Source: Clostridia bacterium (GTDB lineage: Bacteria; Bacillota; Clostridia; Oscillospirales; CAG-272). Taken from it: a DNA stretch of 60,761 bases. Below, one piece after another: positions 7,913 through 46,401 of the stretch. How positions within the stretch are numbered: the stretch's first letter is position 1; each line of letters begins with the position of its first letter. Where the stretch lies: the NCBI GenBank assembly GCA_024404505.1, contig JAKSPU010000003.1, forward strand, positions 1 through 60,761, in the 5' to 3' direction. The notes beneath the pieces were generated by a model. The model did not search any database. It was given only the letters and a program-made list of their open reading frames with translations, and was not told the DNA's origin. The position numbers were made by a program, and so were the translations under genes.

Positions 7913-8038
7913 GACGAGCTTCCTTTCCTGTGATCGCACGCCCGCGCAGGGTGGGCGTTCTTTACAGAAAGTATATCATCACGCGCGGTTCCTGTCAAGA
8001 GAAATCTGAATAATTCCGGATCGGGAGAACATATAGGC

Positions 8039-8067
8039 TTGCTTTCCGGCGCGTTTTATGGTATAAT
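8039..8067 (+). promoter_or_regulatory. SigmaA-type promoter (extended -10) for the metallophosphoesterase gene
   Basis: TTGCTT (8039-8044), 17-nt spacer ending in TGg, TATAAT (8062-8067). Confidence 0.6.
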
Positions 8068-8132
8068 AGCGTCGGAAAAAAGAAGAGAGGGAGCAATGCG
8101 CTTTTCTCCCGGACCGAAAAGGAGACGTGAAA

Positions 8133-9236
8133 ATGAGTATCCCGGATATATTCGTAACCTACCCGACGGTCTACGCCGTGGCGGACCGATACCGGATCAT
8201 CGTGCCCGTGACGGCCGAGAGCGTGATGTGGGTAAAGGTCGGCGAACGATGCTTCTATGACGATTCAAACGGCATCCTCCGCTCCTCCTCGATGACGCAC
8301 ATCATGGAGGTGCCGGGACGTATGTTGGATGAGGCACGCGCCTATACCGTCTGCTGGAGGGTCGTTCGGGAGCGGAAGCCGTATTTTTCGGACCTCGGCG
8401 AGGCGGAGACGTTCACCGTTCCGTTCCGGCCCGTGGAGGGTAAGGAGATCCATATCTACCACGTGGCGGACGCGCACAACCGCGTCACGTCACCCATCCG
8501 CGCCGCATCGTGGTTCGGGGACGACCTTGATCTGCTTGTCCTGAACGGTGACGTCCCGGATCACAGCGGAGATATCCGCAATTTTGCCGCCATCCACCGC
8601 ATCGCGGGAGAGATCACGCACGGAGAAATCCCGGCGGTATTTTCTCGCGGCAATCACGATACCCGGGGCGTCTGCGCGGAAAAGCTCGCCGAACACACCC
8701 CGACGGACTGCGGGCGGTCCTACTACACCTTCCGTGTCGGTCCCGTGTGGGGCGTGGTGCTGGACTGTGCCGAGGACAAGCCGGACGATCATCCCGAGTA
8801 CGGCAATACGATCTGCTGTCACGATTTCCGCCTGCGGGAAACAGACTTTTTGCGCAGAGTCGCGCAGGACCCGGAGCATGAGTACGCCGCGCCGGGCGTG
8901 GAGCATCGCCTCGTCATCGTGCACAACCCGTTCCCGCAGACCTTTGAGCCGCCCTTTGACATCGAACAGCCGGTATTCACCGAGTGGTGCGAGATCCTCA
9001 GAGGATCCATACGTCCGGAGGCCATCCTCTGCGGACACGTCCACGCCTGTTACGTCACACGTCCCGGCGAAGAGCGCGACCACAAGGGGCAGCCCTGCCC
9101 GGTCATCTGCGCCTCAAGACCGGGGCACGGCGAGGAATTCATCGGCGGCGCCATCACCCTGACGGAAAAAGAGATCCGCGTAGAATTCACAGACCAGGAC
9201 CGGAACGTCCGCGGGACGGACGTGATAAAGCTCTGA
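8133..9236 (+). CDS. Metallophosphoesterase (calcineurin-like, purple-acid-phosphatase-type N-domain)
   Basis: ATG at 8133 lies 8 nt after GGAG (the GTG at 8127 is too close to it). Motifs HVADAH, NGDVPDH, GNHD, VHNP and GHVH. Confidence 0.8.
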   Translation: MSIPDIFVTYPTVYAVADRYRIIVPVTAESVMWVKVGERCFYDDSNGILRSSSMTHIMEVPGRMLDEARAYTVCWRVVRERKPYFSDLGEAETFTVPFRPVEGKEIHIYHVADAHNRVTSPIRAASWFGDDLDLLVLNGDVPDHSGDIRNFAAIHRIAGEITHGEIPAVFSRGNHDTRGVCAEKLAEHTPTDCGRSYYTFRVGPVWGVVLDCAEDKPDDHPEYGNTICCHDFRLRETDFLRRVAQDPEHEYAAPGVEHRLVIVHNPFPQTFEPPFDIEQPVFTEWCEILRGSIRPEAILCGHVHACYVTRPGEERDHKGQPCPVICASRPGHGEEFIGGAITLTEKEIRVEFTDQDRNVRGTDVIKL

Positions 9237-9240
9237 CGGA

Positions 9241-9281
9241 AAAAGCGGAGGAGCATCGCAGCGCGATGCTCCTCCGCTTTT
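9241..9281. terminator. Bidirectional intrinsic terminator
   Basis: AAAAGCGGAGGAGCATCGC-agc-GCGATGCTCCTCCGCTTTT between convergent stops (9236 + and 9294 -). Confidence 0.85.
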
Positions 9282-9293
9282 ATGTTTTATCGG

Positions 9294-9902
9294 TCATTCC
9301 TTCTGGACGATTGTAATCCCGACAGGCAGGATGCCGGTCTGCTCGTAGACGACGGCGTTGATCTGCGCGAGCTGTGCCGCCTGCAGCTTTTCCGGTGACT
9401 TGACCACGATATTGGCCGTGTCTCCGCTGATGACCGCGATGCACTGCGCGAAGCCCTTGCCCATCAGGATGGACTCGATATCGGCTTCCTTCGCCATCTC
9501 CTGCGCCAGCATCTCCATCTCCTGCATGGCTTCCGCTTTGACCTCCTCGGACGCCTTGTCGTTTTCGACGACTGCGTTCAGTACCTCAAGTGCCTCGTCA
9601 CGCGCCCGCTTGCGGCTGACCTCGACCGCGGAGAAGTAGGAGTCCGTATCGTCGACCGAGCCCTGTGCGGGAGACGTATCCTCCCCGACCTGCGTGTTGG
9701 TCAGATTGGTCCCGTAGGTCGTCGACATACCGGCGCTGTTCGTGTAGTCGAAGCCCTGATCTTCATTGCGCTTGTTGAAGAAGATCACGTTCAGGACCAC
9801 GGCGGCGCCGATGATGAGGATCGCGCCCGCAATGATCAGGTTGCGGCGTCCGATCCGCTCAAGGAAGCCCTTGAATTTTTCCCAACCGGTTTGTGTATTC
9901 AT
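9294..9902 (-). CDS. spoIIIAH: Stage III sporulation protein AH
   Basis: Last gene of the spoIIIA array. Start at MNTQTGW (GGAGGG RBS), single N-terminal TM, acidic coiled C-terminal domain. Confidence 0.75.
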   Translation of the reverse strand: MNTQTGWEKFKGFLERIGRRNLIIAGAILIIGAAVVLNVIFFNKRNEDQGFDYTNSAGMSTTYGTNLTNTQVGEDTSPAQGSVDDTDSYFSAVEVSRKRARDEALEVLNAVVENDKASEEVKAEAMQEMEMLAQEMAKEADIESILMGKGFAQCIAVISGDTANIVVKSPEKLQAAQLAQINAVVYEQTGILPVGITIVQKE

Positions 9903-9978
9903 GATTATGCCCTCCGTTCCGGATTTTGATTTCAATGCACTTTATGCACACAAGTCCGGAGATATTCCGGAAATGATC

Positions 9979-34556: not shown

Positions 34557-37500
34557 ATGAAAACGCTTCCCGAAATATTGAGCAAATACACGCCGGACGT
34601 CGAGATTTACAAGATCCTGATGTCCGCGACCGATCTCAGACGTAGTGCCGACGTCGCGAACCGTATGCTGCAGATCGAGGCACATTTCCCGACGCTCATC
34701 CCCAAGGAGACGTTGTACAAAATCGAGGACGGGATCTGTAAGGCGTACGAGCTGAACTACGTCAAGCTGCTGCCCCACTACGATCGTGAGCTGTTCACGG
34801 AGGCCTATATCCCTGAGCTGCTCAAGGAGACGGAACGCGTCGGCATCGTGGCGCGCGGCTTCTTCAATACGTACCGCTATAATCTGGAAGGGAACAGCCT
34901 GACCGTTGAGATCCCGTACAGCGTCGATCTGCTGATCGACGCGAGGACACCGCAGGTCATGTCCGCTATCCTGAGAAGCGAGTTCGGGCTGGATCTTCAG
35001 GTGCAGGTCGTATCCTATCAGGACGTACCGGACGAGATGACGCCGCGCATGAAGGAGCTGCTGAACACCTACGATCAGCAGATCATGCGTGCCAGCCGCG
35101 AATACGACAGCCGCCCGCGTCAGACGCAGGGCGCTCCGGCCGCCGGACAGGCTCCCAAGACGCCAGAGGCGATCCTGCCCCGCGTTCAGACGCTGTACGG
35201 ACCGCTGCCGGACCCGCCCGCCGCGGAGAACGCTGAAGACAAATCCGCGGACAAGCCTGCTGAAGATCATAAAGCCGAAGAGAAAAAAGAAAAACCCGTT
35301 TCGGATATGGCTAAGGTCATCCCGGTCGGAGAGGGCGTATGCCGCATCGGCTTTATGACCTTTGATTACTCCGCCCCGACGTTCGCCATCGGAGGCGAGT
35401 TCGATATCATTCCCACGCCGCTCGCCGCGATCGACAAGCCCCAGCGGAACATCGTCGTTCTTGGTCAGGTCTTCGGATTCACCAAAGAGGCCAACCGCAC
35501 CGGCGATAAATTCAATATCACCTACTACCTGACGGATAACGCCGCATCCATCGAGTGCAAGTCGTTCGGTATGGTCCCCGAGGACGCCGCCGAGCTGGAA
35601 AAGGTCGTCAAGGACGGTCAGGTGCTTGCCGTGCGCGGGTACTGCCGTCATGAGGTCCGCCGCGACCGCACGGAGGGACCCGACCTCATCTTCTACCACA
35701 GCGCCATAGCGTCGATCAAGAAAAAAGGCCGCGTGGACAACGCACCGGTCAAGCGCGTCGAGCTGCATCTCCACACGCAGATGTCCGCGCAGGACGCGCT
35801 GATCCAGCCCGCCGACGCCGTCACGCAGGCTCAGAAGTGGGGACATCCCGCCGTCACGATCACCGACCACGGCAACGTGCAGGGCTTCATGGACGCCATG
35901 GTGGCTCATGAAAATACCGGTCAGAAGGTCATATGGGGCATGGAGGCGTATTTCGTCAACAATACCGCCAGCGCCATGTACGGCTCCTGTCCCGGCTCCA
36001 TGCGGGGAGAAGCGGTCGTCTTTGACCTTGAGACGACCGGCCTTTCCGCGCAGAACTGCCGCATCATCGAGATCGGCGCCGTCAGGATCAAGGACGGCGA
36101 GGTCCTCGGCTCGTTCGATACCTTCGTGGACCCGGAGGGGCCGATCCCGCCTGAGATCACCAAGCTGACCGGCATTGACGACAGCATGGTCGCCGGAGCG
36201 CCGGACGAGCTGACCGCGCTCGAAGCGTTCTTCGATTTCGTCGGCAAACGTGAGGACGGCGGCGACATGATCCTCATCGCCCACAACGCCGATTTCGATA
36301 CCGGATTTCTGCGTGCCGCGTGCGTCCGCAACGGACGTGAATTCGCAAACCCGTATCTCGATACGCTGGCGCTTGCACGATACCTTGTCCCGACGCTGAA
36401 GAACCACAAGCTCGACACCGTCGCCAACCATTACGGCCTCGGAGACTTCAACCATCACCGCGCGTCTGACGACGCCGAGATGCTGGCCCGTATCTACTTC
36501 TGTATGCTGCGGGATCTGGACGAGTCGGATATACGCACCTACGACAAGCTCGTTTCGGACATGGCCGAGAAGACCGATCCGACCAAGCTCCGGACCTACC
36601 ATCAGATCATCCTGATCAAGAACAAGACCGGCCAGAAGAATCTCTACAAGCTGATTTCGGACAGCTACCTCAAATACTATAAGAAGAATCCGCGCATCCC
36701 CAAGACGGAGTTGGAAAAGTACCGCGAGGGCCTGATCATCGGCTCCGCCTGCGAGGCGGGCGAGCTGTTCCGGGCGATCCTTGACAACAAGCCGGACGCC
36801 GAGATCGAAAGCATCGTGGAATTCTACGACTACCTTGAGATCCAGCCGATCTGCAACAACCGCTTCCTTATCGCGGAGGGCAAAGCCAAGGACGACGAGG
36901 ACCTCCGTGACCTCAACCGCCGCGTGGTCGCACTCGGTGAAAAGTACGGCAAGCCCGTCGTCGCCACCTGCGACGTGCATTTCATGAATCCGGAGGACGA
37001 GATCTACCGCAAGATCCTTTTGTCCGGTCAGAAGTACAAGGACGCCGACAAGGACGTCGGCATCTACTACCGCACGACCGAGGAGATGCTGGAGGAATTC
37101 GCCTATCTCGGCGAAGAAAAGGCGTACGAGGTCGTCGTCACCAACACCAACTATATCGCCGACTGCATCGAGTACGACGTCAAGCCGTTCCCGCGAGGCA
37201 CCTTCACGCCGCACATGGACGGCGCGGAGGAGGACCTGACCCGTATCTGCTACGAGAACGCCAAAAAGCGGTACGGCGACCCGCTGCCCCCGATCGTGCA
37301 GGCGCGTCTTGAGAAGGAGCTGTCCTCCATCATCAAGAACGGCTTTGCCGTGCTGTACATGATCGCGCAGAAGCTGGTCAGCTACTCCGAGAGTCAGGGC
37401 TACCTCGTCGGCTCCCGCGGCTCTGTCGGATCGTCCATCGTCGCTTCCATGGCCGGTATTTCCGAGGTCTGCCCGCTCCCGCCGCACTATTGGTGTCCGA

Positions 37501-39080
37501 AATGTCAGTACAGCGACTTCGACGTCCCCGAAGGCATCGGCTCCGGCTTCGATCTGCCCGATAAGGACTGTCCGCGCTGCGGCCATAAGCTCAATTACGA
37601 CGGACACGATATCCCGTTTGAGACGTTCCTCGGCTTCTACGGTGATAAATCACCCGATATAGACCTGAACTTCTCCGGAGAGGTGCAGGGCAAGGTGCAT
37701 AAGTATACCGAGCAGCTATTCGGCGCGGAGAACGTGTTCCGTGCAGGCACCATCGGCGCTCTGGCCGACAAGACCGCGTACGGCTTCGTCATGAAGTATC
37801 TCGAAGGTAAGGGCATCAGCCTCAACCGCGCGGAGGTCAACCGTCTGACCGCCGGCTGCGTCGGCGTCAAGCGCACCACGGGACAGCATCCCGGCGGCAT
37901 CGTCGTCGTGCCGAAGGAGTATTCCGTGTTCGACTTCTGCCCGGTACAGCACCCGGCGGACGACCCCGATTCGGATATCGTCACCACGCACTTCACGTTT
38001 GAGTACCTGCACGACACGCTGCTCAAGCTGGACGAGCTGGGACACGATATGCCGACGAAGTATAAGTACCTCGAGAAGTATTCCGGCACCTCGGTCATGG
38101 ACGTCCCCATGAACGACCGTTCCATTTACGACCTGTTCCTTTCCACCAAGCCGCTCGGCATCTCGCCCGACGACATCGCCGGAATCCCGCTCGGTACGCT
38201 CGGTCTGCCGGAGCTGGGCACCAAATTCGTCATCAAGATGCTGCAGGAATCCAAGCCGCAGTCCTTTGCGGACCTTTTGCAGGTCTCCGGTCTTTCCCAC
38301 GGCACCGACGTCTGGACCGGAAACGCGCAGGACCTGATCAAAGACGGCACCTGCACGATCTCCACCGTCATCGGCACCCGTGACTCCATCATGCTCGCTC
38401 TCATCAAGTACGGTGTCGAAAAGAGCCACGCTTTCAAGATCATGGAAATGGTCCGCAAGGGCAAGGGACTTACACCTGAATTTGAGGCGGAGATGCGCGC
38501 GGCGAACGTCCCGGATTGGTACATCGGCTCCTGCAAAAAGATCAAGTATATGTTCCCGAAGGCACACGCGGCCGCCTACGATATGTCCGCGATCCGCCTC
38601 GGCTGGTACAAGGTGCATATCCCGCTCGCCTTTTACTGTGCCATGTTCACCGTCCAGCCGCAGGGCTTTGACGCCGAGCTGGTCATGAAGGGCAAAAAGG
38701 CCGTTCAGGATTACATCCTCGACGTTGAGAAGCGCGGCAACGACGCGCTCCCCAAGGAGCAGCAGGCGCTTCCCGTGCTTCAGCTGATCAACGAGGCTAT
38801 GGCGCGGAAAATCGGCTTCCTTCCCGTGGACATCGAAAGATCCAGCGACGTCGAGTACCTTCCCGAGAACGGCAAGATCCGGATGCCCTTCTCGGCGCTT
38901 CCGGGACTCGGAGACAACGCCGCGGCGAGCATCAAGAAGGCCCGCGACGAGAAGCCGTTCTTCTCGGTTGACGACCTCAAGACCCGCGCCAAACTGACCG
39001 GCGCCGTCATCGAGATCCTGCGCCAGAACGGCGTGCTGGACAACCTTGACGAAACCGACCAGCTGACCATATCCTTCTGA
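34557..39080 (+). CDS. polC: DNA polymerase III PolC-type
   Basis: 1507 aa. Has PHP (VELHLHTQMS), an inserted DEDD exonuclease (VVFDLETTGLS ... HRASDDA), the zinc module CPKC...CPRCG and the pol III alpha core. The N-terminal region carries a Pro/Ala/Lys/Glu-rich linker. Confidence 0.95.
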   Translation: MKTLPEILSKYTPDVEIYKILMSATDLRRSADVANRMLQIEAHFPTLIPKETLYKIEDGICKAYELNYVKLLPHYDRELFTEAYIPELLKETERVGIVARGFFNTYRYNLEGNSLTVEIPYSVDLLIDARTPQVMSAILRSEFGLDLQVQVVSYQDVPDEMTPRMKELLNTYDQQIMRASREYDSRPRQTQGAPAAGQAPKTPEAILPRVQTLYGPLPDPPAAENAEDKSADKPAEDHKAEEKKEKPVSDMAKVIPVGEGVCRIGFMTFDYSAPTFAIGGEFDIIPTPLAAIDKPQRNIVVLGQVFGFTKEANRTGDKFNITYYLTDNAASIECKSFGMVPEDAAELEKVVKDGQVLAVRGYCRHEVRRDRTEGPDLIFYHSAIASIKKKGRVDNAPVKRVELHLHTQMSAQDALIQPADAVTQAQKWGHPAVTITDHGNVQGFMDAMVAHENTGQKVIWGMEAYFVNNTASAMYGSCPGSMRGEAVVFDLETTGLSAQNCRIIEIGAVRIKDGEVLGSFDTFVDPEGPIPPEITKLTGIDDSMVAGAPDELTALEAFFDFVGKREDGGDMILIAHNADFDTGFLRAACVRNGREFANPYLDTLALARYLVPTLKNHKLDTVANHYGLGDFNHHRASDDAEMLARIYFCMLRDLDESDIRTYDKLVSDMAEKTDPTKLRTYHQIILIKNKTGQKNLYKLISDSYLKYYKKNPRIPKTELEKYREGLIIGSACEAGELFRAILDNKPDAEIESIVEFYDYLEIQPICNNRFLIAEGKAKDDEDLRDLNRRVVALGEKYGKPVVATCDVHFMNPEDEIYRKILLSGQKYKDADKDVGIYYRTTEEMLEEFAYLGEEKAYEVVVTNTNYIADCIEYDVKPFPRGTFTPHMDGAEEDLTRICYENAKKRYGDPLPPIVQARLEKELSSIIKNGFAVLYMIAQKLVSYSESQGYLVGSRGSVGSSIVASMAGISEVCPLPPHYWCPKCQYSDFDVPEGIGSGFDLPDKDCPRCGHKLNYDGHDIPFETFLGFYGDKSPDIDLNFSGEVQGKVHKYTEQLFGAENVFRAGTIGALADKTAYGFVMKYLEGKGISLNRAEVNRLTAGCVGVKRTTGQHPGGIVVVPKEYSVFDFCPVQHPADDPDSDIVTTHFTFEYLHDTLLKLDELGHDMPTKYKYLEKYSGTSVMDVPMNDRSIYDLFLSTKPLGISPDDIAGIPLGTLGLPELGTKFVIKMLQESKPQSFADLLQVSGLSHGTDVWTGNAQDLIKDGTCTISTVIGTRDSIMLALIKYGVEKSHAFKIMEMVRKGKGLTPEFEAEMRAANVPDWYIGSCKKIKYMFPKAHAAAYDMSAIRLGWYKVHIPLAFYCAMFTVQPQGFDAELVMKGKKAVQDYILDVEKRGNDALPKEQQALPVLQLINEAMARKIGFLPVDIERSSDVEYLPENGKIRMPFSALPGLGDNAAASIKKARDEKPFFSVDDLKTRAKLTGAVIEILRQNGVLDNLDETDQLTISF

Positions 39081-39114
39081 GGCGAAAAAAGTGAAATTTC
39101 CTTTAAGGAACGTC

Positions 39115-39143
39115 TTGTAATTCCTGTAGGTTTATGCTATAAT
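39115..39143 (+). promoter_or_regulatory. SigmaA-type promoter for the CNB/TIM/cyclase/DUF1643 operon
   Basis: TTGTAA (39115-39120), 17-nt spacer, TATAAT (39138-39143). AAAGGAGAA RBS before the ATG at 39186. Confidence 0.65.
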
Positions 39144-39185
39144 AATACATAATTAAAATCACTTATATGTGAAAAGGAGAAAACA

Positions 39186-40160
39186 ATGAAAAATATTACA
39201 TTCAAGAAAAATGACATGATCATCCGTAAGGGCGATGAGTCCAACGGTATGTACCTGATCAAGTCCGGTATCGTCGGCGTGTATTCCGACCTTCCCAAGA
39301 AGGGCCGTACCATGATCTCCATGCTCGGCAAGGGCAAGTTCATCGGTGAGATGGGCGTCATCGATAACGAAAAGAGAAGTGCCGACGTCGTTGCTCTGCA
39401 GGATACCGAAGTGATCGAGATCCCCGCAGAGGACTTCGGTTCCTTTGTCGCCGGGAACACGACGGATGTCATCGCCCTCATGAAGAATCTCTGTGAGCGT
39501 CTTCGCAGCACCAACAAGGACCTCGATAAGGCCGCCCGTACCATCAGCTGCTTCGTTGAGGAGAACGACAATCTGAACACCAAGTCCGTCACCGGCCTGA
39601 AGGGCGCTATCACCTCCGCGCTCAAGTTCCTCGGTATTTCCGGCAAGGAAAAGCAGCCCAAAACCAAGTACGCAGCCGGCGAGGTCATCTTCGAGCAGGG
39701 CGATATCGGCACCACGATGTTCCGTATCCTCGAGGGCGAGGCTTCCGTCGTTGCCGATTACGGCAAGGCCGATCAGGCTGAGCTGGCCGTTCTGAAGAAG
39801 GGTGATATCTTCGGTGAGATGGCCGTGATCGAGGAGGAGAGACGCACCGCGACCGTCATCGCCAAGACCGACCTGACCGTCGACACCGTTGCCAACGGGA
39901 AGCTGAAGTCCTTCCTGACCGCTTATCCCGAGGATGCCGTCAAGATCATGGCGAATATGTCCGCCAAGCTGAGAGCCACCACGCAGAAGTATCTGGAGAC
40001 CCTCGGTTCCATTTCCGAGTTCGTTGCGTCCGAGAGAGATTCCATGGGTATGTATGTCGGCGGCGAGGACTTCATCCAGTATGCCGCCTACTACGATTCG
40101 ATCATGGAATACAGCGCCATCGAGCCCAGCATGGCCTTCTACTCTCACTATAACTTCTGA
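39186..40160 (+). CDS. Stand-alone tandem cyclic-nucleotide-binding (CNB) domain protein
   Basis: Two CNB domains, each with an intact phosphate-binding cassette (IGEMGVIDNEKRSADV; FGEMAVIEEERRTATV). No HTH, TM or enzymatic domain. About 50-aa aromatic-rich C-terminal tail. Confidence 0.85.
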   Translation: MKNITFKKNDMIIRKGDESNGMYLIKSGIVGVYSDLPKKGRTMISMLGKGKFIGEMGVIDNEKRSADVVALQDTEVIEIPAEDFGSFVAGNTTDVIALMKNLCERLRSTNKDLDKAARTISCFVEENDNLNTKSVTGLKGAITSALKFLGISGKEKQPKTKYAAGEVIFEQGDIGTTMFRILEGEASVVADYGKADQAELAVLKKGDIFGEMAVIEEERRTATVIAKTDLTVDTVANGKLKSFLTAYPEDAVKIMANMSAKLRATTQKYLETLGSISEFVASERDSMGMYVGGEDFIQYAAYYDSIMEYSAIEPSMAFYSHYNF

Positions 40161-40168
40161 TCTGCAAC

Positions 40169-40954
40169 ATGATCCTCTTTCAACCCAAGCCATCCGAATA
40201 TGCGGCTGCGGCGGAATACGCCGCAGCCGCCGGACTCGGATTTGAATTGACGGATTTCATGTTCTGCCCGGTCCTTGAGGATACCGACGTCTGCCGGAGG
40301 CTGATCGGGAAGTTCAGAAACGCACCGGTCAGAGCATTGCACGGTCCGTTCGCCGACCTGAATTTTTCCGGAGGCGATCCGGAGATACAGGCCGTTACGG
40401 AAAAGCGCATCGTCCGCTGCTGCGAATGTGCCGCTGAGCTCGGCGTGGAGAAGATCGTGCTGCATTCGTGCTTCTTCCCGCTCATGCCGCCGGGAGATAT
40501 GCTGTATCAGATATGGAGTGAAAACAGCGCCGAAATGCTGACTCGTCTGGCCGAGCGCTTTTCGGTCGTTTTTTGTTTGGAGAATCTGCTCGACATCACG
40601 CCGGATATCCTCGTCGGAATGCTGAAGGCCGCCGGAGGACATCCGCGCATCCGTGCCTGCCTTGACGCCGGACACGCCAATCTCTCCCGCACGTCCCAGA
40701 CGGAATGGAACAGGGCGCTCTCTCCGTGGCTGTCGCACTTCCATCTGAGTGATAACGGAGGGATGTACGACGATCATATCGCGATCGGTGACGGAACCGT
40801 CGAGTGGGATCAGTTCTTTGCCTCACTCGATCCGCGGGGGGGCTCCGTGGATTTCACGCTCGAGGTCACCGGACTCGCGCGGGTGCAGAAATCCGTCGCG
40901 TGGCTGAAGGCAAACGGTTACTATGACCGTTTGGCGGGCTGTGAGAAAGCGTGA
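40169..40954 (+). CDS. Xylose-isomerase-like / AP_endonuc_2 TIM-barrel protein (Endo IV-like metal-ligand pattern)
   Basis: Motifs ALHGP, VLHSC, CLEN, LDAGHAN, HFHLSDN, DDHIAIGDG and TLEV. Starts 8 nt after the CNB gene. Confidence 0.75.
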   Translation: MILFQPKPSEYAAAAEYAAAAGLGFELTDFMFCPVLEDTDVCRRLIGKFRNAPVRALHGPFADLNFSGGDPEIQAVTEKRIVRCCECAAELGVEKIVLHSCFFPLMPPGDMLYQIWSENSAEMLTRLAERFSVVFCLENLLDITPDILVGMLKAAGGHPRIRACLDAGHANLSRTSQTEWNRALSPWLSHFHLSDNGGMYDDHIAIGDGTVEWDQFFASLDPRGGSVDFTLEVTGLARVQKSVAWLKANGYYDRLAGCEKA

Positions 40955-42360
40955 AGCCGATGAATCAGAACGACCATATTTTCAACGAGTCCATCATCCG
41001 CAATATGCGGGAGGGTGTGTTCACCGTAGACAGGACCGGGCATATCACCTCCATGAATCCCTCGGCCATGAAGATCCTGCAGCGCGACGGGACCGTGATC
41101 GGTCAGACCGTCGTCAACGTTTTCTTCGACGGCGAGGGGAACGACGAGTTCTGCGAGGCGATCTTAGCCGCGATCTACCAGAACGCCGAAGCACACAACG
41201 AGATCGTCAATTACCGTGTGCCGGGCGGCGTGAGACAGCTCTTCATGAGCACCTCCTACCTGACGGACGAGCAGACGACCGTAGGACTTACCGTGGTCAT
41301 CAACGATATCACGGAGCTGAACGAGCTGCGTGACGCGGTCAAAGCCATGGAGAAGATCCGCGCCCTCAACGCGGAGCTGGAAAAGCGCAATCAATTCATC
41401 AAGAAGACCTTCGGGCGCTACCTCTCGGACGAGATCGTGTCCACCATTCTGGAAACGCGTGACGGCCTTGATATAGGAGGCAAGAAGCAGGATGTGACCA
41501 TCATGTTCACGGACCTGCGCGGATTCACCGCTCTTTCCGAGAAAATGCTGCCCGCCGACCTGATCTCCATGCTCAACCACTACCTTGAGCGCATGATAGA
41601 GATCATATTTGCCCACAAGGGCACGATCCTTGAATTCATCGGTGACGCGATCGTATGCGTCTTCGGTGCGCCGCTTGAAAGAAGCACGCGCAACTATGAC
41701 GCCGTCGCCTGCGCGATCAGTATGCAGCGGGATATGGAAAACGTCAACGGCTTCAACCGCGAGCATGGGTATCCGTCCATCGAGATGGGCATCGGCATCC
41801 ACAGCGGAGAGGTCGTCCTCGGCAATATCGGCTCCACGCAGAAAACGAAGTACGATATCATAGGCCGCAACGTGAATCTTGCTTCCCGCATAGAAACCTA
41901 CACGGTCGGAGGACAGATACTGATCTCCGACACGGTCAGGCAGGCGCTCGGTACCTCGCTTTCCGTCGGAAAGATCATCGAGATCATGCCCAAGGGCGTC
42001 AGCAGCCCGATCCCCGTTTATGAGGTCCGCGCGCTTGACGACCTGCAGATGCCGGACGAAACCCAGCACTTCCGGGTGATCGACCCGCCCGCCATCCTTG
42101 AATGCTGTCCGATCGACGGCAAGCATATGTCCGCTCACGGCTTCACGGCCGAGCTGCGGGCCCTGTCCGAAAAGCAAATGCTGCTCAGCTTCAAGCCGCC
42201 GATCAGTGACGGCGAGCTGACGCCGAACACGACGGTCTGCATCACGGTGCCCGCGGGCACGGTTTACGCAAAGCTGATCGGCGAGCGGGACGGCCTCCGC
42301 CTGTTCCATATCACGTCCGGAAGCGCCGATGATCTGAAAAGCATACTGACGCAAGGATGA
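40951..42360 (+). CDS. PAS - coiled coil - class III nucleotidyl cyclase with a C-terminal beta-rich domain
   Basis: GTG at 40951 overlaps the upstream TGA (GTGA); an alternative ATG lies at 40960. PAS (FTVDRTGHITSMNPSAMKIL), cyclase core (VTIMFTDLRGFT, EFIGDAIV, GRNVNLASRIE). Confidence 0.85.
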   Translation: MKPMNQNDHIFNESIIRNMREGVFTVDRTGHITSMNPSAMKILQRDGTVIGQTVVNVFFDGEGNDEFCEAILAAIYQNAEAHNEIVNYRVPGGVRQLFMSTSYLTDEQTTVGLTVVINDITELNELRDAVKAMEKIRALNAELEKRNQFIKKTFGRYLSDEIVSTILETRDGLDIGGKKQDVTIMFTDLRGFTALSEKMLPADLISMLNHYLERMIEIIFAHKGTILEFIGDAIVCVFGAPLERSTRNYDAVACAISMQRDMENVNGFNREHGYPSIEMGIGIHSGEVVLGNIGSTQKTKYDIIGRNVNLASRIETYTVGGQILISDTVRQALGTSLSVGKIIEIMPKGVSSPIPVYEVRALDDLQMPDETQHFRVIDPPAILECCPIDGKHMSAHGFTAELRALSEKQMLLSFKPPISDGELTPNTTVCITVPAGTVYAKLIGERDGLRLFHITSGSADDLKSILTQG

Positions 42361-42390
42361 CAGTTCTACCTGCCGAAAGGAGACAGCCCG

Positions 42391-43011
42391 ATGCACATAC
42401 CCAAGCAGAATACCGCCGGTATCGAGGTCCTGCCCTTTGAGGAAGCGCTGACACTGTCCTCCGGACCGCAGACCGGCTACGACGTGGACAAATGGCTGTA
42501 CGTTCCGCCCGTCTACGACGAATACCGGTACATACTCGGCACAAAAGGGAAGCACCCGCTGATCTGTGTGGGCATCAACCCGTCCACCGCCGAGCCGGAT
42601 CACCTTGACCCGACGCTGCAATCCGCCCAGCGGATCGCGCTGCATAACGGTTACGACAGCTTCCTCATGTTCAACGTGTACGCGCAGCGTGCTACCCGCC
42701 CCGACGATATGGAGAAGGAGATGAATCCGTGGATGCACGGGGAGAACCTGAAAGCGTTCGGCCACCTTCTTTCCCTGTGCGGGGAAAAGCCCGCCGTGTG
42801 GGCTGCGTGGGGCGCCATCATCGAGAAGCGGGCCTATCTGCCCGCCTGCATCCGGGATATGCTGAATGTCGGACGGGAGCGGGGCGCCGTCTGGTACCAC
42901 GCGGGACCCGTTTCCAAAGCGGGACACCCGCACCACCCGCTGTATCTCAAAGCGGATACCCTGCTCGAGCCGTTCGATACCGAAGCCTATCTTTCCCGTC
43001 TGACCTATTGA
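42391..43011 (+). CDS. DUF1643 domain protein (UDG-superfamily-like motifs)
   Basis: AAAGGAGA RBS. LICVGINPSTAEPD ... GHPHHPLYL matches my recollection of DUF1643. Confidence 0.65.
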   Translation: MHIPKQNTAGIEVLPFEEALTLSSGPQTGYDVDKWLYVPPVYDEYRYILGTKGKHPLICVGINPSTAEPDHLDPTLQSAQRIALHNGYDSFLMFNVYAQRATRPDDMEKEMNPWMHGENLKAFGHLLSLCGEKPAVWAAWGAIIEKRAYLPACIRDMLNVGRERGAVWYHAGPVSKAGHPHHPLYLKADTLLEPFDTEAYLSRLTY

Positions 43012-43065: not shown

Positions 43066-46000
43066 ATGAAAAAGCGCAGCTTCAAGTTATTTCTTCTGGC
43101 TGTGGCAGTTCTTCTGACTGCTGCCGTCCTGTTCTCCTGTCATAACGAAGGAGACGACCCGGCAGAATCGGAGACCCTGCCCGGCGTCATCGAGACAGTA
43201 GAATCCGATCAGCCCACCGAGGCCGACACCGAAGCCGAGACGCTCCCGCCCTCGATCTACGCGGTCAGCTTCCCGGCAAAGGATACGCCCGACTATGCGA
43301 AATACCTGACGGAAGCCCGCATCCCCGAGATGCTGAAGAACACCGACTGCGTGGTGGTCGCCGCGGGTGCTTCCACACTTTATCGCAACGACAAGGCCAT
43401 TGACTGCAACGAAGGCATGGCCTACAAGAATGACGGCCTTCTTTACGTCGATGTGAGCGAGATCGCATCCGCGTTCGGCAAGACCGTAGACGTCAGCGGC
43501 GATATGACCGTAAACGAGGCTGCCAACGCGCTCAAATGCTTCGTCATCGACTACGATCATAAGCTGGCCGTGTTCTATTTCGGCAAGACGGACATCGACG
43601 CCTATGACGATATGTATACGCTGGAGGGTCTGTACCTCCGCATGACGGGCGCCGACGAGACCGAGATCGTGAACGCTTTCATAGATCTGCCGTCCGTCAT
43701 CTCCAACGGCTCCACGAATACGCAGTTCTACACCGCCCCTGATCTCAACCTCGGCGTACAGTCCAGCGTGTACTACTCGCAGCTCGGCAACGTCGAAGGT
43801 GTGAGCAACGGTCCCCGCATCGTGGCGGGTGAGGGACGCTGGAACGGCAGCGACACGGTCGGTGCCAACCATACCGTCGTCCGTGTGATGAACGAGCAGC
43901 AGACCGTGACCGCGCAGTTCCTCGCGTTTGATTCCTCCGTGACAGGAGGCGTGCAGGTCGGGGCGGCCAAGGTCGGAAACGAGACTCTGATCGCAGCCTG
44001 CCCGTTTGTAAAGTACGAGGGAACTGACGGCGACGTCCGCGTCTTCGACATCTTCGGCTCACTCCGCATGGACATCGTTCTGCGTGACGTGGTCGAAGGT
44101 CCCTTCACCATCCTGACGGGACGCTTCGACGCTTCGAGAACGGATGAGGTCCTGTTGGTCATGTCCCAGAAGCCCGATGCAAACGGCATGGTCGACATGA
44201 TCCTGATCGACCTCTCTGACGGTTCCGTCATTTCCAAGGATAAGCTCAACTGCTCCTTCGCCAAGGGCGCAGGGGAGGAAGGCTACGGTGAGATGTCCGC
44301 TTCCGTCCGCTTCTCCGTTGACGGCACGGCAGACAGCGTGATCCTGTTCTTCCCGGCAGTACACGCCGTGTACGAGGGCCATCCCGGCAAGGGTGACTTC
44401 GTCAACGCCGGCATCACGCTGCCCGACAACGCAAAGGGCGTCAGCGCCTCCGCCAACATGGGCGAAAAATACATCATCACCCTGTCCGAGACCGAGGACG
44501 CGCTCAACCGCTCCTTCATGACCGTCAGCTACAACGACGGCAGAAAGGACAACATGATGGACGTCGGCTTCCGCGAGAACGTCTTCTACACCGCCTACTA
44601 TTGGCACGAGAGTGACGATTACGTCTGCACCGGCTCCTTCCAGCACATCCGCTGCGACCTTTCCAACGGCGTCATGAACAAGCTGAACAGCTCCAGAACC
44701 GTTGCCGCGATCGACGCCGTGTTCGAGAACGCCAAGTACGATGACTACACCTTCAGCTCCATCAAGCAGTACGTGAATATGCTCAACGACGGCCACGTCT
44801 TCCTTGAGCCGTGCTTCACGCACCGCTGGAACAAGATCAGCGGCACCAACAATCTGCGTGACTACATCGACGAGGATACAGGCACGCACCTGTACGTCTC
44901 CATCGGCAACACCGGTGAGTATACCGACTACCTTGAGCTCGGCTCCTCCTTCAATATCGGCACCTACGCGGACGGTATCCTTGAGCTGGCCAAGCTGCGT
45001 ATCTTCCCGCTGCGCTCCTTCCTGCGCGGCACCGTGTCCGCCTTCCGGGGTGAGAACGGTCATCCCGAGAACCTCGTCGGTGTGTCTCCCGTGCACGAGC
45101 ATGAGATCGACGTTGCCGGCACCGTCGGCGACTACAACGTCCGCATGATCCGCGGCTTCCAGATCTACATGATGGATCTGTACGGCACCGTCGAACATAT
45201 CAACGAGCAGTTCGGCACCGAATTCACCGACGAGTACGAGATCGACCCGCCCCGCAAGCTCGGCCGCGGCGACTGGGATAAATACAGCGGTGATTACTTC
45301 ACGCAGTGGATCATGTATAACCGCTATATCGTCAGCAAGCGCATCATGGAGGCTTACCGTGAGGCCCTGATCGCCGGCTTCCCGCCCGAATCCATCTCCG
45401 CGCACAGCATCCCCGAGGGCGATGCCGTTGCCGGCTTCCTCGGTGAAGCCGATACCCGTATCTCCCCCATCGACATCGTCACCACCTGCGGCACCGCCTA
45501 CGGCGGCACACGTTACGGCACCTTCTACAACGGCAAGACCAACTTCTTCAACGTAGCCAACCGCGCGGGTCAGTGGTCCATCACGCTCGGTGAATACAGC
45601 GCTACCTCCGAGAGCAGCGGCACCGCCTATCAACAGCTGTATTGGCTGTGGTCGCACGGTCTGCGTATGGTCCACTTCATCACCTTCAACGACAATCAGG
45701 CCAAGGCCGAGGAAGCTGCCGTCAAGAAGCTGGGCGAGCTGAATCAGCCGCGTCCCGGTTACACGCACGGCACCACGGACGCCCACGGCGTCACGCAGAA
45801 CGGCAAGACCTACAACATCGTCCAGATCGGCGCCGGCGCCGACAGTGAGACCGAGGGCCTTCTGAAGTCCCTGACCGCCGACGGCAAGTGGGAGGGCACC
45901 GTTTACGTCGTACCGTTCCACGCACATGTCAACGTCTTCGACATCGCCGCGATCCGCACGCCCGTCGAGGGTGACGCGTACACCTACTCCACCGGCAAAC

Positions 46001-46401
46001 TTTCCGATTGCGTCAAGTTCATCAAGAACGCAGACGTCATGGAGCTTACCTTCAAGGCAGCCTACAGCGGCGAGGGCAAGGCATACGCTCATATTTCCGT
46101 CTATAACCACGGCTGTGAGATCCCCGCGGCCGAGACCGTCTACGAGTTGACAAACACGACGACCCCGTACCGCTACGTACTGTTCAACCAGCTGTACTTC
46201 GACGACGTCGAGATCCGCATCACGTTCAGCACCGAGGGCGGCGACAACGCCGGCATCTCCGTGACCGATATGAAGGGAACGATCCAGCAGGATACCGTGT
46301 ATGTCAAGTACTATGACAAGAACCCCAAGTCCTTCAAGAACAGCCTGCCTCATCAGGGCGGCGTGACCTTCGATCTCATCGACCGCGATATGAGAGGCTG
46401 A
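43066..46401 (+). CDS. Large surface lipoprotein, multi-domain (stalk-like N-domain, propeller-like region, glycosidase-like TIM barrel)
   Basis: Signal peptide with lipobox LFSC (MKKRSFKLFLLAVAVLLTAAVLFSC). Copper-amine-oxidase-N-like segment near the N-terminus. The C-terminal half has GH42-like features (SPVHEHE, AHSIPEG). No precise family assigned. Confidence 0.7.
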   Translation: MKKRSFKLFLLAVAVLLTAAVLFSCHNEGDDPAESETLPGVIETVESDQPTEADTEAETLPPSIYAVSFPAKDTPDYAKYLTEARIPEMLKNTDCVVVAAGASTLYRNDKAIDCNEGMAYKNDGLLYVDVSEIASAFGKTVDVSGDMTVNEAANALKCFVIDYDHKLAVFYFGKTDIDAYDDMYTLEGLYLRMTGADETEIVNAFIDLPSVISNGSTNTQFYTAPDLNLGVQSSVYYSQLGNVEGVSNGPRIVAGEGRWNGSDTVGANHTVVRVMNEQQTVTAQFLAFDSSVTGGVQVGAAKVGNETLIAACPFVKYEGTDGDVRVFDIFGSLRMDIVLRDVVEGPFTILTGRFDASRTDEVLLVMSQKPDANGMVDMILIDLSDGSVISKDKLNCSFAKGAGEEGYGEMSASVRFSVDGTADSVILFFPAVHAVYEGHPGKGDFVNAGITLPDNAKGVSASANMGEKYIITLSETEDALNRSFMTVSYNDGRKDNMMDVGFRENVFYTAYYWHESDDYVCTGSFQHIRCDLSNGVMNKLNSSRTVAAIDAVFENAKYDDYTFSSIKQYVNMLNDGHVFLEPCFTHRWNKISGTNNLRDYIDEDTGTHLYVSIGNTGEYTDYLELGSSFNIGTYADGILELAKLRIFPLRSFLRGTVSAFRGENGHPENLVGVSPVHEHEIDVAGTVGDYNVRMIRGFQIYMMDLYGTVEHINEQFGTEFTDEYEIDPPRKLGRGDWDKYSGDYFTQWIMYNRYIVSKRIMEAYREALIAGFPPESISAHSIPEGDAVAGFLGEADTRISPIDIVTTCGTAYGGTRYGTFYNGKTNFFNVANRAGQWSITLGEYSATSESSGTAYQQLYWLWSHGLRMVHFITFNDNQAKAEEAAVKKLGELNQPRPGYTHGTTDAHGVTQNGKTYNIVQIGAGADSETEGLLKSLTADGKWEGTVYVVPFHAHVNVFDIAAIRTPVEGDAYTYSTGKLSDCVKFIKNADVMELTFKAAYSGEGKAYAHISVYNHGCEIPAAETVYELTNTTTPYRYVLFNQLYFDDVEIRITFSTEGGDNAGISVTDMKGTIQQDTVYVKYYDKNPKSFKNSLPHQGGVTFDLIDRDMRG

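Follow-up and report, generated by a model that had tools for sequence, protein, structure and literature searches.

A stretch of 60,761 nt from contig JAKSPU010000003.1 of a Clostridia bacterium (hereafter the window) carries, directly 3' of polC, a three-gene element (39082-42390) that codes for a stand-alone protein with two cyclic nucleotide-binding (CNB) domains, a TIM-barrel metalloenzyme of the AP_endonuc_2 superfamily and a class III nucleotide cyclase with a PAS domain. We propose that this element is a self-contained cyclic-nucleotide signalling cassette, probably based on cyclic GMP (cGMP), with the barrel most likely serving as the phosphodiesterase of the messenger; to this reading as a whole we assign a probability of about 0.5. 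In the proposed mechanism the PAS-regulated cyclase would sense a cue and make a 3',5'-cyclic nucleoside monophosphate (cNMP), most likely cGMP; the tandem-CNB protein would be the receptor of this messenger; and the barrel, with its multinuclear metal site of the endonuclease IV/CbiR type, would cut the messenger at its ribose 3'-O-P bond and so turn the signal off. A preliminary description of this region had joined the three genes to a fourth, encoding a DUF1643 protein, and had read the row of four as a cNMP-gated module for DNA base excision. The link that it drew between cyclase, receptor and barrel has held, whereas the four-gene unit and the base-excision pair have not. The features of the element are as follows:

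39082-42390, + strand: inserted cassette including upstream region, ~3.3 kb, delimited by blastn break-points and junction alignment
39115-39143, + strand: sigma-70-like promoter, TTGTAA-17-TATAAT with a TG-extended -10 element, 10 of 12 positions matching
39186-40160, + strand: gene 1, tandem-CNB protein, 324 aa (open reading frame call, Pfam)
40169-40954, + strand: gene 2, metalloenzyme with a TIM barrel (AP_endonuc_2 superfamily), 261 aa (open reading frame call, Pfam)
40951-42360, + strand: gene 3, PAS domain, coiled coil and class III cyclase (GTG start; Pfam)

Composition and conservation of the cassette

Relatives of the barrel are few, with 15 matches among 5.8 billion proteins, as against more than 8000 for the DUF1643 protein (gene 4). 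A scan for barrel loci, with one genome taken per species, returned 80 loci (L-numbers denote the loci compared). After removal of duplicates the cassette set consists of 17 loci, the window included, defined by a barrel that is recovered by phmmer at E <= 4e-38 and that is 30-74% identical to gene 2. The gene for the PAS-cyclase lies directly 3' of the barrel gene in 17/17 of these loci, in many of them with a 4-nt overlap, and a CNB gene lies 5' of the barrel gene in 14/17, as a tandem version in seven and as a single-domain version of ~175 aa in another seven, the latter from seven Lachnospiraceae genomes. One locus is interrupted by a contig end, and in two (L004 and L016) there is no CNB gene, the barrel-cyclase pair being adjoined by a GAF-domain ATP-binding cassette (ABC) ATPase and a MacB-type permease. 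Homologues of gene 2 at 73%, 62%, 59% and 48% identity display the order CNB-TIM-PAS-cyclase in unrelated neighbourhoods that contain no DUF1643 gene, and a homologue at 43% identity is part of a TIM-cyclase pair without a CNB gene. Among the weaker barrel relatives in the 80 loci, a cyclase or CNB neighbour was never seen. Given that the pairwise divergences of the CNB, barrel and cyclase proteins correlate strongly (r = 0.91-0.97), the three are inherited together. The linkage of a cyclase, a stand-alone CNB receptor and an endonuclease IV-type barrel, as originally suggested for the window, is a conserved feature of the cassette (17 loci, 14 of them with the CNB gene).

The cassette is rare and has so far been encountered only in Clostridia of the gut and rumen; no published description of it was found in the literature searched. 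Outside the window it occupies at least six unrelated neighbourhoods. Its neighbours are housekeeping or transport genes and form no defence islands, and across the 17 cassette loci there is no recurrent association with genes for sugar catabolism, cobamides or the envelope. Several individual neighbours may be recorded: 1) in L004 (8169-12482) and L016 (1524-5985) the permease is of the MacB/FtsX type and partner-switching genes (SpoIIE, STAS and HATPase_c_2) lie nearby; the GAF-ABC neighbours could constitute an alternative receptor and output; 2) in L010 the gene 3' of the cassette (9223-9915) is related to AlkZ (PF24741, 1.6e-79), a DNA-glycosylase-related family, a single case that is probably a coincidence; 3) in the single-CNB clade, a CYTH-domain gene lies divergently upstream (L019, 4788-5234, - strand) and a DJ-1/PfpI gene downstream (8033-8581), as they also do in L020, L021, L047 and L072, an arrangement that may reflect mere common ancestry of closely related genomes.

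In the window, genes 1 and 2 are separated by 8 nt, genes 2 and 3 share a 4-nt GTGA overlap, by which the start of the cyclase gene is translationally coupled to the barrel gene, and 30 nt lie between genes 3 and 4. The promoter sits in a 105-nt AT-rich spacer (GC 0.46) 3' of the polC stop codon. For the region as a whole the promoter scan is at chance level (3 sites versus 2.2 expected), but in most homologous cassettes the region upstream of the CNB gene contains similar promoter elements (10-11 of 12 positions) at a distance of 34-64 nt. This spacer excepted, the base composition of the insert is not distinguishable from that of its surroundings. Because the terminator scan of the region detected no terminator-like site between gene 3 and the DUF1643 gene, the latter is probably now read from the cassette promoter by read-through; such co-transcription would be a consequence of the insertion described below and no sign of a common function. 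A terminator-like hairpin with a T-run is present inside gene 2 (40548-40568); it is probably a chance occurrence and was set aside as such, since the scan gives three sites against 3.4 expected from shuffled sequences. The open reading frames, spacings, domains, motifs and promoter sequence of the preliminary description were all found as it gave them, and so were the flanks that it named, polC and a lipoprotein-like gene.

Insertion between polC and the DUF1643 gene

The genes on either side of the cassette are:

34557-39080, + strand: polC, 1507 aa, left flank outside the cassette (open reading frame call)
42391-43011, + strand: gene 4, DUF1643 protein, 206 aa (open reading frame call, Pfam)
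43066-46401, + strand: 1111-aa protein with a lipoprotein-like N-terminus, right flank (open reading frame call)

In the nearest cassette-free relatives the gene order is ispG-polC-DUF1643, with only 8-24 nt from the polC stop to the DUF1643 start and with DUF1643 proteins 70-77% identical to that of the window. When one such locus, L093, is compared to the window by blastn, the match extends to 39081 and resumes at 42391; the 3.3 kb between are replaced in L093 by an unrelated spacer of 63 nt. Short spacers are likewise seen in L005-L007 where the window has the cassette, and those of L005 and L093-L095 range from 8 to 63 nt. The arrangement in the window is not an assembly chimera, since its order, polC-CNB-TIM-cyclase-DUF1643-1111 aa, is shared by an independent second assembly (L173) that is 97.0% identical over 12.7 kb, and since a contig of another metagenome covers 42000-42478, that is, the junction of genes 3 and 4. 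No cassette-free joint was found among the fragmentary metagenome contigs, none of which covered 39037-39250. The simplest history would be that polC and the DUF1643 gene were parted in this species by the arrival of a cassette of three genes and their promoter. On the right side the gene order continues undisturbed, with the same 1111-aa gene kept 3' of DUF1643 in L005, L093-L095 and L173. The 1111-aa protein itself has no Pfam domain, its only match being a sub-threshold one to Glyco_hydro_42 at 0.043.

The distribution of DUF1643 tells the same story from the other side. None of the 16 other cassette loci has a DUF1643 gene within 6 kb (1/17 when the window is counted), and the barrel, the CNB gene and the cyclase are absent from all 83 DUF1643 loci examined. 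Hence the supposed four-gene unit is not syntenic in relatives, and we consider it very probable that genes 1-3 constitute the unit and that DUF1643 stands outside it as a resident follower of polC and a bystander to the cassette. The adjacency of polC and DUF1643 was also considered as a general rule and rejected, because it is confined to the lineage of the window (L005-L009 and L093-L098; 11/75 assessable DUF1643 loci). The tight link with polC may hint at what DUF1643 does. In other lineages its neighbours encode a YfcE-like metallophosphoesterase and a membrane protein of ~235 aa; the clustering of DUF1643 neighbours was partly contaminated by spurious antisense open reading frames in GC-rich DNA.

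Gene 4 is matched by DUF1643 in Pfam (1.8e-31), and its VGINPS and HPHHPLY motifs had been likened to those of the uracil-DNA glycosylases (UDGs). Both motifs are indeed present and conserved in an alignment of 51 DUF1643 sequences, in which N63, S65 and P180 are invariant and H182-P183-L184 nearly so; the resemblance to UDG motifs, however, finds no statistical support in Foldseek or hhalign comparisons. With a model of pLDDT 94.9, Foldseek returned no UDG among PDB matches at E <= 1e-3, and indeed no PDB structure at all; its list is led by cutinases, with UNG (5GN2) at E = 5.1e-3 and a TM-score of 0.39 and UdgX at 0.088. In the BFVD database only two proteins score below 1e-3, a DUF1643 protein of a phage and an uncharacterised one, and a crAssphage UDG appears at 0.047. 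A search of PDB chains with the 51-sequence DUF1643 profile likewise contained no UDG, the corresponding single-sequence search gave noise too, and hhalign against E. coli MUG aligned only 12 columns around GINPS, covering motif A only, with a probability of 1.7%.

Affinities of the barrel, the cyclase and the receptor

Gene 2 is recognized by the AP_endonuc_2 model of Pfam (1.8e-23), and nine His, Asp and Glu residues had been laid by eye onto the ligands of the trinuclear metal site of endonuclease IV. All nine (H58, H99, E138, D166, H169, H192, D201, H203 and E232) prove to be invariant in the 17 homologues, and eight are aligned to E. coli Nfo by hhalign (Nfo sequence used 284/285 identical to 1QTW), with H99/E138/D166/H169 falling on H109/E145/D179/H182 and H192/D201/H203/E232 on H216/D229/H231/E261. 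The N-terminal 89 residues, i.e. the N-terminal third, give no alignment to Nfo; H58 is outside the aligned block, yet invariant. In profile searches the best solved relatives are MJ1311 (1.7e-37) and TTHB071 (7e-25), followed by ketose epimerases as the third PDB group (1e-14 to 1e-9) and endonuclease IV (1.6e-11 to 1e-7), while a single-sequence search reached endonuclease IV (5ZHZ) at E = 0.42. Foldseek, which had been suggested as a check of the endonuclease IV assignment, ranks the relatives in the same order for a model of pLDDT 91, with TM-scores of 0.73-0.77 to MJ1311 and TTHB071 versus 0.65 to endonuclease IV. The sole NCBIfam match is to CbiR (NF041277; 46.1 bits, E = 4.2e-12, the cut-off being 105 bits). 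There is no match to the deoxyribonuclease IV or epimerase models of NCBIfam, nor to PADLOC or PHROG; viral contigs are without the barrel, and its plasmid-borne relatives are all distant. By profile and by structural model alike, gene 2 is no endonuclease IV and belongs to a MJ1311/TTHB071/CbiR-like branch of the superfamily.

The members of this branch are found in company that points to phosphodiesterases and away from DNA repair. MJ1311 (3WQO) and TTHB071 (3AYT/3AYV), the best matches of gene 2 in both sequence and fold, have no cyclases as neighbours; instead, corrinoid transport genes accompany the archaeal relatives, and nucleotidase and metallophosphoesterase genes accompany the version from Thermus. 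MJ1311 reportedly keeps the nine zinc ligands of endonuclease IV without possessing its DNA-binding groove. Outgroup barrels (25-34% identity) adjoin genes for a corrinoid ABC ATPase and a BtuC permease, in several Clostridia and in Methanocorpusculum, or cobT. In Vescimonas fastidiosa, a cultured member of the Oscillospiraceae, a 'TIM barrel protein' (L175, 4935-5693) overlaps cobT and heads a cobT-cobU-cobS cluster, and on a Thermus thermophilus plasmid (L174, 3387-6443) the TTHB071 orthologue is situated between a TIGR00282 (YmdB-like) metallophosphoesterase and a SurE 5'/3'-nucleotidase. MJ1311-type barrels next to genes for a corrinoid ABC transporter (BtuC/D-like), cobT or cobTUS were recorded in L023, L025, L026, L033, L034, L046 and L050-L080, in L032, L049 and L057, and in L175. 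Against the CbiR model these barrels reach 39-60 bits (cut-off 105), and MJ1311 may be a member of a second clade of cobamide-linked phosphodiesterases.

CbiR of Akkermansia muciniphila converts adenosylcobalamin to cobinamide-phosphate and needs its conserved His/Asp/Glu residues to do so (PMC7733943). As the product is cobinamide-phosphate, the bond that CbiR cuts is the ribose 3'-O-P bond, which is also the kind of bond broken by endonuclease IV and in the conversion of a 3',5'-cNMP to the 5'-NMP. Endonuclease IV leaves a 3'-OH. Given that CbiR, endonuclease IV and cNMP hydrolysis all cut the same kind of bond, this branch of barrels looks like a nucleotide phosphodiesterase family. With CbiR, for which ribose 3'-O-P hydrolysis is itself known, gene 2 shares its branch of AP_endonuc_2 and the metal ligands; it differs in that its 46 bits are far below 105 and in that a cyclase is always paired with it, instead of cobamide genes in the vicinity. 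With endonuclease IV it shares the TIM barrel and the trinuclear-site ligands, but it is much more distant and has no conserved DNA-repair context here.

Gene 3 bears out its earlier description as a PAS domain, a coiled coil and a class III cyclase (Pfam PAS and Guanylate_cyc, 1.2e-33), and along with the coiled coil it has an FGRY transducer motif. The closest solved relative of its catalytic domain is Cya2 of Synechocystis (2W01, 2.6e-45). Cya2 is a guanylate cyclase whose E488K substitution switches its preference to ATP, the variant seen in 6FHT (PMC5995499). The aligned specificity site reads ..tidEFmgd.. in 2W01, ..tidKFmgd.. in 6FHT and ..tilEFigd.. in gene 3. A Glu occupies the position of Cya2 E488 in 17/17 cassette cyclases, which also keep the metal-binding Asp pair and the transition-state Asn and Arg throughout (17/17; FTD...GD, NVNLASR, ILEFIGD). 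At the second specificity position, where guanylate cyclases have Cys, Ser or Gly, the single-CNB clade shares the Gly of Cya2, whereas the clade of the window has Asp. Since gene 3 has the specificity-determining Glu of Cya2, we consider cGMP the probable messenger, an assignment that would be more secure for the Gly clade than for the Asp clade. Gene 3 thus has the class III domain, the specificity Glu and the FGRY motif in common with Cya2, and one cassette clade the Gly as well; it differs in that its sensor is a cytoplasmic PAS domain, that of Cya2 being a CHASE2 domain with a transmembrane segment, and in an extra C-terminal domain of 124 aa. These last 124 residues (41986-42357) are conserved among the cassette cyclases, and a Pfam search at the permissive limit of E <= 1 assigns them to no family.

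In gene 1, Pfam detects two cNMP_binding domains and nothing else (3.5e-45). The phosphate-binding cassettes of both domains are conserved without defects, and no helix-turn-helix (HTH), transmembrane or catalytic domain is found with Pfam or NCBIfam, just as had been stated at the outset. The possibility that gene 1 is a transcription factor of the CRP/FNR type was considered and rejected: the NCBIfam CRP matches span the CNB region only and are far under the cut-offs, and there is no HTH. Tandem and single-domain CNB proteins of the cassette alike end in an aromatic-rich C-terminal tail (40020-40160 in the window) that contains no known domain; examples are ..YAAYYDSIMEY..FYSHYNF and ..YDAYYMMDHFSMYY. 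This tail might be a docking element.

Functional proposal, rival explanations and implications

The permanent coupling of the barrel to the cyclase makes degradation of the cyclase product its most economical role. Furthermore, the receptor varies between tandem CNB, single CNB and GAF-ABC versions, whereas the barrel-cyclase pair is constant, which favours a phosphodiesterase role. By analogy with the chemistry of its relatives, we therefore put forward the barrel as a possible phosphodiesterase of the cyclase product, an assignment that we hold tentatively. More tentatively still, it may be the founding member of a new class of cNMP phosphodiesterases, forming a dedicated cGMP cassette with a Cya2-like cyclase and a bare CNB receptor. 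The known cNMP phosphodiesterases fall into three classes, namely class I of the HD type, class II with a metallo-beta-lactamase fold and class III, which is calcineurin-like and includes CpdA/Rv0805. The metal-dependent 3'-O-P hydrolysis proposed for gene 2 would be the same as theirs, on an entirely different fold.

A number of considerations weigh against this proposal. We know of no cNMP phosphodiesterase with a xylose-isomerase-like TIM-barrel fold, nor, to our knowledge, is there any biochemistry for the barrel clade, MJ1311 or TTHB071. Were the barrel a mere degrader, the cassette would be left without an identified output, and a receptor devoid of an effector domain would be equally compatible with a barrel that is itself under regulation and serves as effector; the adjacency of two genes gives a functional link and not its direction. 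The Glu/Asp pair in the cyclases of the window's clade is no canonical guanylate-cyclase pair, and their product could be another nucleotide.

Several other explanations of the locus have to be weighed against the same evidence. The barrel could be the output enzyme, activated or released by the CNB protein and the messenger in a PKA-like fashion and cleaving some other phosphodiester, such as one in a cobamide-like cofactor or an envelope polymer. The absence of an effector domain from the CNB protein, the position of its gene directly 5' of the barrel gene in 14/17 loci and the conserved aromatic tail, which could be a docking peptide, would all suit such an arrangement, as would the fact that the substrate of CbiR, the closest relative with a known function, is a cofactor and not a messenger. 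We regard it as the main rival and nevertheless judge it less likely than not, as L004 and L016 retain the barrel-cyclase pair without a CNB gene, with the GAF-ABC ATPase as the likely receptor, and as genes for cobamides or the envelope are not regular neighbours of the cassette. Considerably less probable is an ordinary sugar or sugar-phosphate isomerase or epimerase whose place in an operon of signalling genes is fortuitous. Most members of AP_endonuc_2 are indeed sugar isomerases or epimerases, ketose 3-epimerases rank third among the PDB groups (1e-14 to 1e-9), and MJ1311 was deposited as 'D-tagatose 3-epimerase-like'. Ketose epimerases, however, use four of the nine ligands of the endonuclease IV type; the residues of their Glu-Asp-His-Glu single-metal site are a subset of the nine in gene 2, which has five invariant metal ligands beyond that set. 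There is no sugar context, with no conserved sugar-catabolic gene and no NCBIfam epimerase match, and the coupling of barrel and cyclase holds down to 30% identity. The preliminary description had allowed that the barrel might group with sugar isomerases and lack a three-metal site; the nine ligands are retained, but the closest relatives are MJ1311 and TTHB071 and not endonuclease IV.

The remaining two explanations would assign the locus to DNA metabolism or to conflict with phages. A defence system of the abortive-infection kind, in which infection by a phage would switch on the cyclase, the messenger would be sensed by the CNB protein and the barrel would be the nuclease effector, is suggested by domain-level hits of the PADLOC models for the Pycsar cyclase (gene 3, 5e-23) and for a CNB-TIR effector (gene 1, 9e-28), and by the occurrence of the cassette in different genomic places. 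The Pucsar systems, which are based on cGMP and have TIR or transmembrane effectors, provide a precedent for the messenger (bioRxiv 10.64898/2026.08.12.744502). Pycsar and Pucsar resemble the cassette in combining a class III-type cyclase with a CNB-domain protein, but their effectors fuse the CNB domain to a TIR or transmembrane domain and their cyclases have no PAS domain, whereas here a bare receptor occurs with a barrel. The cassette cyclase has PAS and FGRY elements like housekeeping sensor cyclases and is nearer to Cya2 than to the PycC models; neither PADLOC nor PHROG matches the barrel, and PADLOC has no match for DUF1643 either. With housekeeping or transport genes as neighbours, no viral contigs and only distant relatives on plasmids, we regard a defence function as very unlikely. 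The original idea of a cNMP-gated base-excision module, with DUF1643 as the glycosylase and the barrel as the AP endonuclease, we regard as hardly tenable. It could draw on the nine endonuclease IV ligands, on the GINPS and HPHHP motifs of DUF1643 with its weak Foldseek matches to UDGs (5GN2, UdgX and the crAssphage UDG), on the position of DUF1643 behind polC in this lineage and on the AlkZ-related gene after the cassette in L010. Yet DUF1643 adjoins the cassette in this species only (1/17 cassette loci and 0/83 DUF1643 loci), by an adjacency that arose through insertion; the barrel is nearer to the MJ1311/TTHB071/CbiR-like branch than to endonuclease IV in both profile E-values and TM-scores; and DUF1643 yields no UDG at a Foldseek E <= 1e-3 and a probability of 1.7% against MUG. 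DUF1643 may still prove to be UDG-like, but this has ceased to matter for the cassette. Because DUF1643 is a resident neighbour of polC, the proposed pair of glycosylase and AP endonuclease falls.

Returning to the proposal of a cyclic-nucleotide cassette with its own phosphodiesterase, close functional parallels are the bacterial cGMP modules GcyA/CgrA of Rhodospirillum centenum and XC_0250/XC_0249 of Xanthomonas, in each of which a guanylate cyclase is encoded with a CNB receptor. The cassette differs from these in that the Proteobacterial receptors have an HTH or GGDEF output and no TIM-barrel partner. The locus also offers a caution of a more general kind: a tidy, promoter-led row of four genes may be a recent insertion beside a resident gene, and operon structure alone therefore defines no system.

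If the barrel hydrolyses the cyclase product, it would add a fourth fold to those of the cNMP phosphodiesterases, and it would provide a first function for an orphan branch with an endonuclease IV-like site, including the solved structures of MJ1311 and TTHB071. We know of no description of cGMP signalling in anaerobic Clostridia of the gut or rumen. Should the cyclase make cGMP, the Firmicutes would offer in this cassette a compact, portable case of bacterial cGMP signalling.

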